A stretch of 44,005 bases of DNA from a virus (IMGVR_UViG_2579778573_000005), one strand, 5' to 3'. Positions 16,651 to 40,667 are shown, counted from the stretch's first letter. Numbers and translations: made by a program. Notes: generated from the sequence alone by a model not told the origin.

Positions 16651-16880
16651 AATCGAACTCCCACGGGCCGACGGCGTCCCGTACTCAGACCGAGCTGTGA
16701 TTTCAGCTCGATAATGTACGTTCGGAGCTGCTCAATACTCGCCTGCGAGTATTGATAGCTCCGGTTATTTCCTGCTGAATCGCCGTGAGACAGCGACACG
16801 GTCGATTTACCCGTTAATAATTTGTGCAGAGCGATTTCCGCTTCCAGCAGTCGTTCTGTTAAAACCTCGCGCGACGTCAT
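16647..16880 (-). CDS. Head-tail joining protein W (lambda gpW-like)
   Basis: Track ORF 77 aa; resembles lambda W. Confidence 0.6.
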   Translation of the reverse strand: MTSREVLTERLLEAEIALHKLLTGKSTVSLSHGDSAGNNRSYQYSQASIEQLRTYIIELKSQLGLSTGRRRPVGVRL

Positions 16881-18841
16881 TAGCTCCCTCCGAGCATTCT
16901 GGCCATCTCCTCGAGAGACAGTTTGTTTTGTGATTTTTTCCGTTGCTCAGCGAGCGTCTCGAGATTGAGCTGGAAACGAATTTTACTGATACGCAGCGCT
17001 GCCAGTCCGTACACCCAGCAGTCGAGCGCCTCATTTCGCCGGCCCTGGTTGTCCCAACGATAAACGACGCGACCGTTAATGAGTTTCGGGATCAGAACCT
17101 CGGAGACGAGCTGTTTTGCCTCTGTCGTGCTGAATATTTCGTCGTCGTTGGGAAAATGAATCGCACCTGGTGTCGCCGATTTGGAGTCGGGTTCCAGCTG
17201 CAGGCGCATTGCGAGCAGGTCTTTCGCTGTATCTGTCCCAATCAACGACAAATACACTTTATTCGCGTTACGGGTACGAGGCATATTTACGACCGGCTGG
17301 CCGTATGAGCTCGCGCCCTTGATTGGAATGACCCACAGCGGACCGAGTTTCAGCGAGCGGTTATAAACGACCTGCGCATCTATACCACCGGTATCCCACG
17401 CCCAGCGACTGACGCCGATTGTGGTCCCGTCGCTGCGCCGGTATTGTTTGCGAATCACTCCGTCGACGCGCTGCAGCGTGTCCTCCTCGTCGTAGCGACC
17501 GAGGACGATTGTTTTATCAATCAGCCAGCACTCCTCCTCGGCTCCCCAGCCCCACACATAACACTCGTAGCGCCCGGACGTCTGAGAGTCGATGCCGCCG
17601 GTTATATAAACAACACCGTCAGGAACCTGGCTGGCGTATTTTTCCCGGCGATTAACCAGAATATCGTGCTCCAGCTGCTCGCTGGCCACGTCGCTCCAGA
17701 GTTCGCCGAGCGTCGTGTTATGAAACGTCTTTTCCTTGAGCGGGTCGCCTTTCGCTTTCAGCCACTCGCTGACAATCTCGCCCCATCCATCGAGGTTTAG
17801 TGAATACAGGGCGTTTATCACGATCGCAGCGTGTTTCGGCGCGCGAACGACGCCACCGTCATGATCAAAAAAATGAATGCCGTCTCGGGTCCAGGTGCAG
17901 TCCTCGGCTATCCAGCGCCCCCCGAACTCCATTTTTTCGAGATCGCGATAGTAAAAATGTTCCGGGCAGTGGCAGCACTGGTAATACGCGGACGACGATT
18001 TCGCCTCATTGGTCTGCAGGCTGTTATCCCATTTGAGGCCGTATTCGATACCGTCGAAACCAAATACCAGGACCTGCTCCTCGCCACAATGCGGACATGT
18101 CAGGTAAAAACGAAACGTCAGATCGGCAGCGTCTTCGAGCATTTCGATATGACTTTTGCCGGTAACGGTCGGCGTCGAACCAAAAATCGCCTTCGGGTAC
18201 GCTGCCCCTTTAATTCGAACGAGCGCCAGTTCGATGGGCGAGCCCTCGCCTTTGCCTTTTTTGGCAACTTCCAGCGGCCAGCCGTCAACTTCGTCACCCT
18301 CGACAACCTGTTTCGTTAGTCGCCGGAAATTTCCTGGTGCACTCGCGCCGCGAAAATCAAGAATCGCGCCGCTCATTTCTTTACGCTGGAGATTGTTACG
18401 CTCGTTGCTTTTATCCCAGTCGGGGAAAATTTTCTGAATCACTGGCATTTCGGCGATAGCGGGGTCAACCTCGTCGGCGACAAATCCATCCGATTCGTCA
18501 TCGATAGGCTGATAGACCACGGCACTACGTTTTTTGTGCTCAGCGAAATAGAGCAGCGCCGCGACGAGTATTTTTGTATAACCGAGACGAGCTGATTTGC
18601 GAACAGACACGATTTTTATCGCGTCGTTCGTCATCATATTGAGCATCACTACCTGGACCGGCTGAGTCGTCCAGTGCCCAGCGATGTGGCTGGAGCCCTC
18701 AGGGAGATAAAAATATTTATCAGCCCACTCAACACCCGTCATCGGTATCGTCACGCGCAAGGGATTCAACCCTGTCGAGATCGCGTTCGATATCGCTGAC
18801 ATCGTAATCGCTGAAGTCGATTCGTATGTCTGACAACTCAT
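16880..18841 (-). CDS. Terminase large subunit (lambda gpA-like)
   Basis: Track ORF 653 aa; VEWAD..YLP, CPHCGEEQ and KGAS.YG.PV..MPR motifs match lambda A. Confidence 0.9.
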   Translation of the reverse strand: MSCQTYESTSAITMSAISNAISTGLNPLRVTIPMTGVEWADKYFYLPEGSSHIAGHWTTQPVQVVMLNMMTNDAIKIVSVRKSARLGYTKILVAALLYFAEHKKRSAVVYQPIDDESDGFVADEVDPAIAEMPVIQKIFPDWDKSNERNNLQRKEMSGAILDFRGASAPGNFRRLTKQVVEGDEVDGWPLEVAKKGKGEGSPIELALVRIKGAAYPKAIFGSTPTVTGKSHIEMLEDAADLTFRFYLTCPHCGEEQVLVFGFDGIEYGLKWDNSLQTNEAKSSSAYYQCCHCPEHFYYRDLEKMEFGGRWIAEDCTWTRDGIHFFDHDGGVVRAPKHAAIVINALYSLNLDGWGEIVSEWLKAKGDPLKEKTFHNTTLGELWSDVASEQLEHDILVNRREKYASQVPDGVVYITGGIDSQTSGRYECYVWGWGAEEECWLIDKTIVLGRYDEEDTLQRVDGVIRKQYRRSDGTTIGVSRWAWDTGGIDAQVVYNRSLKLGPLWVIPIKGASSYGQPVVNMPRTRNANKVYLSLIGTDTAKDLLAMRLQLEPDSKSATPGAIHFPNDDEIFSTTEAKQLVSEVLIPKLINGRVVYRWDNQGRRNEALDCWVYGLAALRISKIRFQLNLETLAEQRKKSQNKLSLEEMARMLGGS

Positions 18842-19295
18842 TTAAGGCTATCGCCAGCTCCTCTCGTAATACACTGCTCGCCTCTTGCGGCATCTCCGGC
18901 CAGACCTTTTTCAGGCGTGGTGGCCACGACTCGACGCGGGTACGTAATTCAACGGCGACGCGAGATACAGCGACGCTAATTAATTCAATTGGCGCGTAGC
19001 GTTTAGCGAGAATGCGGCGTTTTACTCGTGCCATCAGGATTCGCTCCTGTCGTTCCTCATTTTTCAGCCACTGCTCGCGATTTTTTTCGGGAGAATTGTC
19101 CCCCGCTTCCGGTTCGTCATTACTAGTTGTGTCGCGTCTATTGCTCCGGAGATAACGAATATAAAAATGGCGCCATGCGTCTAGCTCCCAATCACCACGT
19201 CCTTGTGGGACTGGTGCTCCCGGAAGTTTTGCGAGATCGCGCAGACGACGATCAGATAGCAGTAAATGTGCTGCAACCTCAGCCTGACTTGCCAT
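18729..19295 (-). CDS. Putative terminase small subunit (positional)
   Basis: Track ORF 188 aa upstream of and overlapping the large terminase. Confidence 0.45.
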   Translation of the reverse strand: MASQAEVAAHLLLSDRRLRDLAKLPGAPVPQGRGDWELDAWRHFYIRYLRSNRRDTTSNDEPEAGDNSPEKNREQWLKNEERQERILMARVKRRILAKRYAPIELISVAVSRVAVELRTRVESWPPRLKKVWPEMPQEASSVLREELAIALNELSDIRIDFSDYDVSDIERDLDRVESLARDDTDDGC

Positions 19296-19440
19296 TAAAA
19301 ATCCTCACCGGAACCGGAAATACCCAAAATGAAAAAATACTAAAAACGAGCGAGTTTTTGCGCGTCTACCGACCCTCGGTGTTTTGGATTTCGGAAAGGA
19401 CCCGCGACCAGGGGGCTATCTCCCTTTCAGGACAGGAATT
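19296..19440 (-). promoter_or_regulatory. Candidate cos region
   Basis: Non-coding stretch upstream of terminase genes; minus strand carries GGTCGCGGGTCCTTTCCG and TTTCCGGTT, which resemble lambda cos-proximal sequence as recalled from memory. Confidence 0.35.
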
Positions 19441-19648: not shown

Positions 19649-19909
19649 ATGAGAACGCAAAAAATGAACAGAGAAAAAATTGAAGCCTTAATGAGCGTAA
19701 TATTAAAAGAAGCTGACCCAAAAAAGTTTCCTGAGAAGTTATCAGAGGACGCCATCGTATCTTTTTATCGTGCGAACTCCTCTTATCTAAATTGTTCAAC
19801 TTTAAGAGAATGGCTAAGCGGCGAAGCAGAGCCTTCAGATGAGATACTTCAGAAGATTATGGTTCAGAACAACTGGCGCGCAACAAAATGGTCAAATCAG
19901 TTACCTTAA
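19649..19909 (+). CDS. Opposite-strand AT-rich small ORF (moron candidate), unknown function
   Basis: Track ORF 86 aa; likely start at internal ATG 19664; lies between terminase and lysis genes. Confidence 0.4.
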   Translation: MRTQKMNREKIEALMSVILKEADPKKFPEKLSEDAIVSFYRANSSYLNCSTLREWLSGEAEPSDEILQKIMVQNNWRATKWSNQLP

Positions 19910-28305: not shown

Positions 28306-29453
<1,148 letters not shown>

Positions 29454-38450: not shown

Positions 38451-40667
38451 ATGACCATTTTTAACGGCTTGTTAGAAGCGAAAAAAGGCGCGCTCAAAAA
38501 CGGCGCGATCCCGGCGCTGGCCATCGCCATCGCCGCCCCTAACAAAAAAGTTGCCGAGAACATCATCATCGGCAAATTGTGGGAAGCCTACCCTGACCAC
38601 GGCGACAACTATTTCAAACCTAAAATCTGGGAAGATGCCCCGGGCCAACCGCGCCCAGGCGTCGGTGAGTTTGATGAGACGTTTGCCACAGAACACAGTT
38701 TTGATGGCGAAAAATGGGTAGTTAACACTCCTGTTGATTCAGATTGCAGTTCAGCAGATATCTCACAGGTTAGCGACCTGATGAAACTGCCGGCTCGTGA
38801 ACGATTCGCCGCCGTTCTGCTGTTCAGCCACGACGCCAACGAAGTCGACAGTGAATTGCTTGTGCAGACGCGTGAATACCTGGAGATGCTCGATAACAGT
38901 GATACTGACAGTGAGGATGAGGTTGACGCGTTTAACCGCATCGTTCTTGATGCCATGGTGGCGTGTAAGCCCATCGAGTACATGCATATTGCTGGATTGA
39001 ATAATCTGGTACATGCAATTTTGGCAAGTTGCGATACCCAGGAACAAAACCCGACCAGTTGGACTATCTCCAAATTTATAAAAAAATGGGTAGAGAATCC
39101 CGGTAAACGAGATGAAATGCTGCCGGAGGTAAAACCAGAAACAGCATCCGCACGTCCTTACAAACAGACTCACGCCACTCTGGATCGTGAAATTGCCTGC
39201 GCCCTGTTACCTGTTGCCCCGGAAAAAATCACCCCCAGCATCCTGAAAGCGGCAGACGAAATAATCAGTCAGGACAGGGAAGATTTTAAACGCTGGTCAA
39301 TGGCCTTGCGCACAACGGATCAGATCCTTGCCTATGACCGCGCATCAGTATTCGGTGTTATTCAGAGCGCCCCCGCAAAAGACACGTACCACTTCCCACA
39401 ATCCCTGCGCAGTCACATCGACAACTGGCTGCAAGCTAACGGGCAGCGTGATGCAAATGCTGTTGAAGAGAAGCCAAAGGAAGCAGCACCCAAGGATGAT
39501 GTAAAAGTCACCAACCACGGCGGCGGACGATTCTCAATTGATGGGATGATGTCAGAAACACCCTCAAATCAGGGCGAAAAAAGCGAAGCTGCAAATGCTG
39601 GAGAACGTAGTTTGCAGCAGTTGCGTGAGCAGTTTGTCACGCCTCGCCATGTGTATGACGTACCTGAAAATAACGCCGTATCACAGAGGGAACCTGCAGC
39701 TATTACCCTGGCAGAAGAGACTCCTCCACAAGAACAACTTAGCGAGCAGGTAAAGGATCTGGTGCAGAACGTTGACGCGCTGGTTGAGCGGATCCATGCC
39801 GAAGAGCACAAGCGGCAGAATGCAATCTCAGCTATCGAAACGGAGTTAAAGGACTCAGATGACACGGATAACCTGGCATTGTGGAAGAACGTATTCAAAA
39901 CCGATGAGCGCTTCACCAGTGCTTTCTCTCAGAATGGCGGCGGCACATCCATCAACGGCACTTATATAGCGATGAAAGCGACTCGCGAATTTGGGCCATT
40001 TGGTATTGGCTGGGGGGTAGAGGTGCTGGAGGAGCGCTTTGATAAAGGCGCACCAATAGTTCGCAAAAAACAGGTTGGTGAAAAAATAGAATGGGATCTG
40101 ATTCAAGACGGTGTTGGCGGGTACCTATGTGAAATGCACCACACCATGAAAGTGAGAGTCTGGTACATATTGAATGGGGTACGCGGTGAGTCCGAGGCTT
40201 ACGGATGCACACCTTATATCTACGACACTAAATACGGACCAACAAGCGACGGCGAAGCACCGAAGAAATCCTGGACGGATGCTGTTAAGAAAGCGCTATC
40301 CCCTCTCGGATTCAGCGCCGATATTTTCATGGGCCTGTACGACAATCCGGAATACCGCCAGAGGAATAAAGCTGAGTTTGATATCAAGAATGCCAGCGAG
40401 AATGCGGAAGATGCTACCCGTCTGCGTAAGGAACTGGATGAGAAGCTTATCAACGTTGCCAATACGCTGGCCGCCGCGGTAACCGCCAACGAAGTAAACA
40501 AGGTATTTGGCCTCATCGCCCGCGAAGTGGATGTACACAGGAAAGCAGCGGAAACCAAAGGCGATAAAGAATATTCATCGTATCTGGGATCACGTCTGCG
40601 CCGTATCACCGACATTAAAACTGAACGCCTCGCCGCCCTTACCGCTGCACAGGAGCAAACAGCATGA
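38451..40667 (+). CDS. Large early protein of unknown function
   Basis: Track ORF 738 aa; GAGGAAAGACCA RBS module; acidic N-terminal half; no family recognised by eye. Confidence 0.5.
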   Translation: MTIFNGLLEAKKGALKNGAIPALAIAIAAPNKKVAENIIIGKLWEAYPDHGDNYFKPKIWEDAPGQPRPGVGEFDETFATEHSFDGEKWVVNTPVDSDCSSADISQVSDLMKLPARERFAAVLLFSHDANEVDSELLVQTREYLEMLDNSDTDSEDEVDAFNRIVLDAMVACKPIEYMHIAGLNNLVHAILASCDTQEQNPTSWTISKFIKKWVENPGKRDEMLPEVKPETASARPYKQTHATLDREIACALLPVAPEKITPSILKAADEIISQDREDFKRWSMALRTTDQILAYDRASVFGVIQSAPAKDTYHFPQSLRSHIDNWLQANGQRDANAVEEKPKEAAPKDDVKVTNHGGGRFSIDGMMSETPSNQGEKSEAANAGERSLQQLREQFVTPRHVYDVPENNAVSQREPAAITLAEETPPQEQLSEQVKDLVQNVDALVERIHAEEHKRQNAISAIETELKDSDDTDNLALWKNVFKTDERFTSAFSQNGGGTSINGTYIAMKATREFGPFGIGWGVEVLEERFDKGAPIVRKKQVGEKIEWDLIQDGVGGYLCEMHHTMKVRVWYILNGVRGESEAYGCTPYIYDTKYGPTSDGEAPKKSWTDAVKKALSPLGFSADIFMGLYDNPEYRQRNKAEFDIKNASENAEDATRLRKELDEKLINVANTLAAAVTANEVNKVFGLIAREVDVHRKAAETKGDKEYSSYLGSRLRRITDIKTERLAALTAAQEQTA

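Follow-up and report, generated by a model that had tools for sequence, protein, structure and literature searches.

The question raised by this locus is whether the non-coding DNA upstream of the terminase genes of an E. coli prophage (positions 19296–19440, minus strand) is a cos site and, if so, where the two nicks would fall. The window, by which we mean the whole stretch of 44,005 nt that was analysed (IMGVR_UViG_2579778573_000005), is a chromosomal E. coli prophage. A preliminary description had singled out two minus-strand strings as resembling sequence near the lambda cohesive ends and had argued for cos packaging from a lambda-type large terminase; the nick sites were left unplaced. 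We assign a probability of about 0.85 to the reading of 19296–19440 as the cos site of a temperate E. coli prophage. Judged from its sequence, it would be a lambda-type cos with an N15-like 'simple cosB' of different specificity. A lambda-type cos is an ordinary, expected feature of such a prophage; the system is a known one and nothing is overturned.

Gene context and order of elements

The non-coding stretch is a 144-bp gap upstream of the ATG (19295) of the gene for the small terminase subunit, TerS. On the minus strand it reads:

...CCCCCTGGTCGC GGGTCCT TTCCGAAATCCAAAACACCGAG GGTCGGTAGACG CGCAAAAACTCGCTCGTTTTTAGTATTTTTTCATTTTGGGTA TTTCCGGTTCCGG TGAGGATTTTTA ATG

The elements assigned to it and to the adjacent genes are as follows.

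19397–19403, minus strand: cosQ core GGGTCCT, a 7-mer identical in lambda, phi80, N15 and phiARM81ld
19363–19374, minus strand: cosN, predicted 12-nt 5′ cohesive end GGTCGGTAGACG, placed by alignment to Aeromonas phage record ends
19375/19374 (minus strand) and 19363/19362 (plus strand): predicted nicks, uncertain by ~1 nt
19354–19362, minus strand: conserved right flank of cosN, CGCAAAAAC, kept in all enteric versions
19320–19353, minus strand: A/T-rich spacer from cosN to the R site, without IHF consensus
19308–19319, minus strand: cosB, proposed R3-equivalent tandem repeat TTCCGGTTCCGG, bp 56–67 from the predicted end
19104–19116, plus strand: candidate rR2-type site, inverted R copy CGCTTCCGGTTCG (core TTCCGGTTC, 19107–19115)
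18729–19295, minus strand: TerS gene, 188 aa, distant Nu1 relative (PHROG 57, E 3e-39)
16880–18742, minus strand: gene for the large subunit, TerL, gpA family, the expected cosN-nicking enzyme (Pfam GpA_ATPase 2.8e-46, GpA_nuclease 5.9e-64)
19367–19381, plus strand: terminator-like hairpin TACCGACCCTCGGTG followed by a T-run, overlapping the predicted cosN

The order is that of lambda: cosQ, a spacer of ~22 bp, cosN, cosB and the small-subunit gene. Spacing does not vary among the 22 distinct versions of the block that cosQ and cosN form in enterics, and both order and spacing are kept across related loci ranging from 46 to 73% G+C. The elements, their order, spacing and conservation, and the way related phage records end at the same point are what the locus presents directly.

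Homology of TerS to Nu1 is drawn from PHROG 57, which lambda Nu1 also matches (1e-76), and from an hhalign comparison in which the two proteins are collinear from residue 4 (E 1e-4, probability 57%); searches with TerS gave no Pfam Nu1 hit and no significant PDB hit. The protein is 45% identical to p01 of phiARM81ld. TerL is 53–54% identical to the phiARM81ld TerL and 43% identical to N15 gp2; its start at 18742 follows the annotation of record ON470624, while the longest ORF starts at 18841. It is of gpA type and belongs to no pac-type family. In the classification of Casjens and Gilcrease (2009), gpA-family large terminases are reportedly tied to 5′ cos ends. On the minus strand TerS and TerL are followed by gpW, a lambda-family portal and an S49 protease, then by capsid genes and a contractile tail, so that the late genes lie on this strand; a Q antiterminator and lysis genes are found upstream, and an integrase and a DnaB-type helicase further right. 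The ORFs for TerS, TerL, portal and protease are intact, and none of the packaging and head ORFs is truncated.

Other features of the neighbourhood were recorded as well. An 86-aa ORF (PHROG 5191, function unknown; 19649–19909, plus strand) lies between the lysis cassette and cos, in a 'moron' slot where the prophage SerU-LTIIb carries LT-IIb enterotoxin genes. A 738-aa ORF of the early region (38451–40667, plus strand) has no Pfam hit. In a related locus of Enterobacter mori LMG 25706 (L024) the frame of the TerS gene (at 1201-) stops after 86 aa; this TerS gene is probably a frameshifted pseudogene, and the cos elements beside it are intact.

Both strings of the preliminary description are present on the minus strand, GGTCGCGGGTCCTTTCCG once, at 19409–19392, and TTTCCGGTT at 19320–19312. 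Their likeness to lambda held in part. Within the first string, GGGTCCTTTCCG (19403–19392) matches lambda bp 48473–48484 exactly over 12 bases, 23 bp from the lambda right end. With up to one mismatch it occurs once in the window, where 0.13 hits are expected (13 of 100 shuffles had a hit); for the exact match we calculate an expectation of ~0.005. The 7-mer GGGTCCT by itself is at chance frequency (3 hits in the window versus 2.7 expected). The remainder of the first string, the prefix GGTCGC, was rejected as part of a nick site, being located left of cosQ and not kept in relatives; it is probably incidental and may have been taken for the complement of the lambda overhang, AGGTCGCCGCCC. The second string, TTTCCGGTT, is found exactly in lambda at bp 39–47; here it occupies bp 55–63 from the predicted end, an offset of 16 bp, and a positional homology of the two copies was rejected. 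With four copies in the window this 9-mer is not specific alone. Its significance here would be that it marks the proposed R3-equivalent binding repeat of the small terminase subunit, as part of the conserved TTCCGGTTCCGG. The cos reading is lifted above chance by context and conservation, not by the quoted strings.

cosQ and the predicted cohesive end

In lambda, cosQ is required for termination of packaging. This element is reportedly exactly the 7-mer GGGTCCT (Wieczorek and Feiss 2001). The 7-bp cosQ is strongly conserved among lambda-like phages (PMC4669245). In the phi80 record the region is labelled 'cosQ; aka R4 region'. In phi80 and N15, GGGTCCT precedes the annotated 12-nt 5′ end by 23 bp; it is equally far from the record end of lambda and from the end of phiARM81ld, and here it lies 22 bp left of the aligned point and predicted nick. 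It is invariant in 22 of 22 distinct enteric versions of the block, and GGGTCC is retained in nearly all of ~50 related loci (46–73% G+C). Left of the nick, cosQ is the sole element in common with phiARM81ld.

The nick sites can now be predicted by homology, as records of the Aeromonas phages whose terminases are closest to ours end at the aligned point. A sensitive DNA search retrieved five Aeromonas phages, and in four of the five one edge of the match coincides with an end of the record, either base 1 or the last base. In ungapped BLAST alignments position 19374 stands opposite base 1 of phiARM81ld and of PhAER-5 and opposite the last base of PhAER-1; the alignment to phiARM81ld has 13 matches out of 16. 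Records of phiARM81ld and PhAER-5 begin with GGGCGTTAGACC CGCATG, and the PhAER-1 record, which has the opposite orientation, ends there. A 12-mer duplicated at both ends of a record is the product of end repair of a 5′ overhang. PhAER-1 and N15 records both carry their own 12-mer at both ends, and the N15 annotation gives bases 1–12 as a 5′ single-stranded extension; the 12-nt length and 5′ polarity predicted here follow from these PhAER-1 and N15 record ends. The cos of phiARM81ld itself receives no mention in PMC7556043 or PMC6456758.

On this alignment the overhang is, on balance, probably exactly GGTCGGTAGACG (19374–19363). Both predicted nick sites then read G^NG(G/T)C (GAG^GGTC and GCG^CGTC), to be compared with ACG^GGGC and GCG^AGGT in lambda and with GCG^GGGC and GCG^GGTC in phiARM81ld. 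Six of the 12 bases agree with the lambda overhang, five of six in the left half (GGTCGG versus GGGCGG) and one of six in the right half. In the lambda-like family, overhangs diverge from that of lambda mainly at bp 7–12 (PMC4669245). Among the 22 enteric versions variability is concentrated in overhang positions 5–9 (mean 1.34 bits, against 0.32 for positions 1–4 and 0.22 for the right flank), given that these versions were selected on ACGCGCA, which fixes positions 10–12 together with the four bases that follow; ACGCGCA is also present in the loci retrieved only by BLAST (L006–L012). Constrained bases next to the nicks and a free centre fit a cosN. The right flank CGCAAAAAC, which aligns with CGCGGGTTTT in lambda, is kept even in prophages with unrelated cosB and small terminase subunit. 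A search for contig ends at the predicted nick among 14 matching stretches in IMG/VR and 10 in metagenomes found none; all matches are internal.

Counted from cosQ to the conserved CGC that follows cosN, the distance is 34 bp here and 35 bp in lambda, phi80, N15 and phiARM81ld. Because it is 1 bp shorter, the nick position or the overhang length could differ by 1 nt from our prediction. A real cos with its nicks elsewhere would have the overhang GGGTCGGTAGAC (one base to the left), the 11-nt overhang GTCGGTAGACG or an overhang of 13 nt, and we consider such placements somewhat unlikely. The 11-nt version would retain the 23-bp cosQ spacing of lambda, and a gapped alignment, GGG-CGTTAGAC versus GGGTCGGTAGAC, can be drawn as well; in addition, the phage collection contains no experimentally characterised or isolated phage with the enteric 'ACG^CGCA' type of cosN, only two prophage-derived records. 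The placement at GGTCGGTAGACG, on the other hand, is the one obtained in the ungapped alignment to phiARM81ld, and with this position only do both nick sites read G^NG(G/T)C. In the sister E. coli prophages the right nick precedes the CGCTATTTATG block by 10 bp, exactly as in lambda, where nick placement is set from the cosB side (PMC4669245).

A proposed compact cosB and its inverted copy

Between the overhang and the ATG there are only 67 bp, with the ATG at bp 80 (bp 89 in N15 and bp 191 in lambda). The sole repeat in the interval between cosN and the TerS start is TTCCGGTTCCGG, a tandem duplication of a 6-mer that has exactly one match in the window. It is identical in the Aeromonas phages, and the consensus TTCCG.TTCCGGT persists across related loci of 46–73% G+C. 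The 50-odd related loci either conserve the R motif or carry it as a larger, lambda-like R3-R2-R1 array; in the relatives with long cosB (L053/54, L052/55/56 and L061) an A/T-rich segment separates a direct copy from an inverted one, which another direct copy follows, and this array appears to be the R3-I1-R2-R1 design of lambda. The position is that of R3, with critical bp 56–59 in lambda and bp 48–59 in N15 (PMC4669245). Because of this position, its conservation and the R3-I1-R2-R1-like array in relatives, we take TTCCGGTTCCGG as the TerS site and the cos as a 'simple cosB'; its equivalence to R3 is quite probable. The proposed ligand is the N-terminal helix-turn-helix domain of TerS.

A complex cosB with three R sites, R2 being inverted, was not found: upstream of TerS there is one tandem R and no inverted copy. 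The IHF consensus WATCAANNNNTTR, allowing up to one mismatch, has no match in 19296–19362, and a bend site of the I1 type between cosN and the ATG is accordingly unsupported. From cosN to the ATG the DNA is 76% identical to phiARM81ld, compared with 57.5% for the small-subunit and 62% for the large-subunit coding DNA.

An inverted copy of the R motif lies inside the TerS gene, within the codons for D-E-P-E-A and 204 bp from the upstream copy. The core TTCCGGTTC occurs three times in the window versus 0.34 expected, and two of these copies form the inverted pair. Among relatives, those with simple cosB repeat this arrangement at CDS +172 to +185; the R variant that a lineage has upstream is also the one found internally, in a linker that is otherwise poorly conserved. 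The motifs shared by the upstream and internal copies are:

Aeromonas phages: CATTTCCGGTTC
L057: GTTCCGGTT
L058: TGTCCGGTTT
high-G+C group: TTCCGCTTC

The internal copy is absent from the relatives with complex cosB. N15 has an inverted R3 copy, rR2, in gene 1 at bp 249–260 (PMC4669245). We confirmed it at these positions in the N15 sequence. Resampling of synonymous codons with the protein kept, a conservative null, gave p = 0.05–0.27 per lineage, and because of these values we list the rR2-like site as a candidate only; our Fisher combination over five lineages is ~0.01. The pattern is suggestive of an accessory site, and the chance that the inverted copy is a functional rR2-like site seems to us slightly below even.

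The mechanism proposed here is based on homology with lambda and N15, from which we infer binding and nicking. The N-terminal helix-turn-helix domain of TerS would bind the tandem repeat TTCCGGTTCCGG (19319–19308), a single R3-equivalent used with neither an IHF site nor R2 and R1, and the bound TerS would place the gpA-type large subunit on cosN. TerL would then nick twice, 12 bp apart, to leave the virion 5′ overhang GGTCGGTAGACG, and packaging would enter the terminase and head genes, moving leftwards as the window is numbered. Once the next cos of the concatemer is reached, the terminating cut would be triggered by GGGTCCT (cosQ, 19403–19397) together with cosN. The inverted R copy at 19107–19115 may serve as an accessory site in the manner of rR2.

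Distribution, alternative readings and related cos systems

Of 5426 complete E. coli genomes, 443 (~8%) contain the prophage, many of them O25b:H4-ST131, and 409 of the 443 copies are at least 99% identical. The window is identical to ON470624, 'vB_EcoM-705R4', an in-silico prophage prediction. In urological E. coli 28 CRISPR spacers match this record (PMC12736100), suggesting that the phage or its close relatives have been met as active phages. A further spacer, of E. coli MFDS1006657 (NZ_CP073589.1), matches 33 nt of the start region of TerS (19268–19300) with 97% identity. An IS-type transposase (Pfam rve, rve_3 and HTH_21) is encoded at 28306–29124 (minus strand) in the early/immunity region.

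Because of this transposase the prophage copy may be defective or non-inducible. The site would then be a genuine cos by descent, now an unused relic carried clonally in ST131 and related lineages. Besides the IS, the near-identity of most of the 443 copies fits clonal inheritance rather than spread; the sole phage record is an in-silico prediction, and no contig among the IMG/VR and metagenome matches ends at cos. We nevertheless hold a disused relic to be unlikely, given that the packaging and head ORFs are all full length, that the cos elements are all intact and identical to or compatible with those of more distant relatives, and that many CRISPR spacers target the phage. Present-day activity of the site is what this explanation bears on; it alters only the current use and not what the sequence is.

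A more radical explanation would deny that the sequence is a cos: the lambda resemblance would be coincidental, and the gap a late-operon leader or regulatory region of a phage that packages by the headful (pac) mechanism. The singly weak strings (GGGTCCT at its chance frequency, TTTCCGGTT in four copies) and the hairpin at 19367–19381 are in line with it. The hairpin is not conserved in the sister cos sites, however, and was set aside as probably incidental. A headful phage would also not be expected from a gpA-family TerL, from related phage records whose ends coincide with the site and are unique, with a 12-nt duplication, or from an order and spacing of elements kept from 46 to 73% G+C; moreover, conservation is higher in the non-coding stretch than in the terminase genes. 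We therefore regard this explanation as highly improbable. The cos packaging argued for in the preliminary description is supported by the GpA_ATPase and GpA_nuclease domains of TerL, the layout in lambda order and the coinciding record ends.

Compared with lambda itself, the cos site shares the succession of cosQ, a spacer of ~22–23 bp, a 12-bp cosN, cosB and the genes for the small and then the large subunit. The 12-mer GGGTCCTTTCCG, which includes cosQ, is identical, TerL is of gpA type, TerS falls into the PHROG of Nu1, and an R site occupies the R3 position. The differences concern cosB, which in lambda extends over ~120 bp as R3-I1-R2-R1 and here over ~45 bp with one tandem R and no IHF site; the distance to the TerS gene (start at bp 191 versus bp 80); the R motif (CGTTTCC(G/T)TTCT in lambda versus a TTCCGG-based one); the cosQ spacing (23 versus 22 bp); and the tail, which is contractile here.

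N15 has a 'simple cosB' consisting of R3 and the intragenic rR2 (Feiss et al. 2015, PMC4669245). Like N15, the prophage has a single R site at the R3 position (bp 48–59 in N15, bp 56–67 here), a small-subunit gene starting at most 90 bp from the end (89 versus 80) and an inverted R ~200 bp distal in the part of TerS that codes for the linker (bp 249–260 versus ~bp 259–271); neither has an IHF site. The R sequences, however, are unrelated (GAGGTTGTTGTT in N15 versus TTCCGGTTCCGG here), and identity is ~21% over 111 aa between the small subunits and 43% between the large ones. The packaging specificity is presumably unlike that of N15, since the R motifs are unrelated and the subunits so divergent. 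N15 is, furthermore, a siphovirus whose prophage is a linear plasmid, in contrast to the integrated myovirus studied here. Monarch has a complex, tripartite cosB without an intragenic copy, like the complex-cosB relatives of our prophage.

The closest sequenced phages are phiARM81ld and PhAER-1, PhAER-2 and PhAER-5 of Aeromonas, in which the cos layout is the same nearly base for base. CATTTCCGGTTCCGGT is identical, and the intragenic inverted copy is found in both groups; the overhang differs (GGGCGTTAGACC versus GGTCGGTAGACG), as does the cosQ spacing (23 versus 22 bp). According to PMC7556043, phiARM81ld is a linear plasmid-prophage.

About 100 other E. coli genomes match the cosQ–cosN block only (19354–19403, minus strand), at ~80–85% DNA identity. 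The block is shared by L006, L008–L012 and L052–L056, and its spacing is identical in E. coli lambdoid prophages such as SerU-LTIIb and L008–L011. L008 has the identical 12-nt overhang, yet its TerS is ~21% and its TerL 44% identical to ours. Homology to such sister prophages, e.g. SerU-LTIIb and L008–L011, stops right after CGCAAAAAC; the sister E. coli lambdoid prophages differ from ours in having a long lambda-like cosB and a Nu1-like small subunit. Common cosQ and cosN with differing cosB are known from lambda and phage 21 and from PICIs (PMC4669245, PMC9026076). This distribution suggests that the cosQ–cosN block may be a portable module. Another arrangement was seen in L012 (NZ_CP128926.1, E. 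coli TUM9812), where a stretch of under 3 kb holds two cosQ–cosN-like blocks of opposite orientation, one at ~1500–1600 and one at a second site. Capsid and decoration genes are their neighbours, and no TerS gene adjoins them; the genome has five matching places, and L012 may be a PICI-like satellite or a rearranged prophage.

With a known cos and a likely cohesive end, results of induction, transduction, PhageTerm and end-mapping primers become interpretable, and the true start of the phage genome is defined. The dichotomy of 'simple versus complex cosB', drawn from N15 and Monarch, is extended to a second and much broader TerS lineage. A wider proposition, possible rather than probable in our estimation, is that a compact cosB is general across this TerS clade and that the cosQ–cosN module moves between terminase lineages that are ~44% identical. 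If true, the compact cosB would not be a peculiarity of N15; it would be recurrently maintained in enterics, Aeromonas, Photobacterium and high-G+C proteobacteria, with one site at the R3 position and an inverted copy ~205 bp off in the linker-coding part of TerS. TerS dimers would bridge both sites by DNA looping without IHF, the linker sequence of TerS (E-P-E, K-P-D or E-A-E) would be imposed by the DNA site that the protein itself binds, and the internal and upstream copies would co-evolve. If the portable module is real, enteric prophages exchange the unit GGGTCCT, 22 bp, GG.......ACG^CGCA. The natural covariation of the R copies could serve to test how TerS recognises DNA without IHF.
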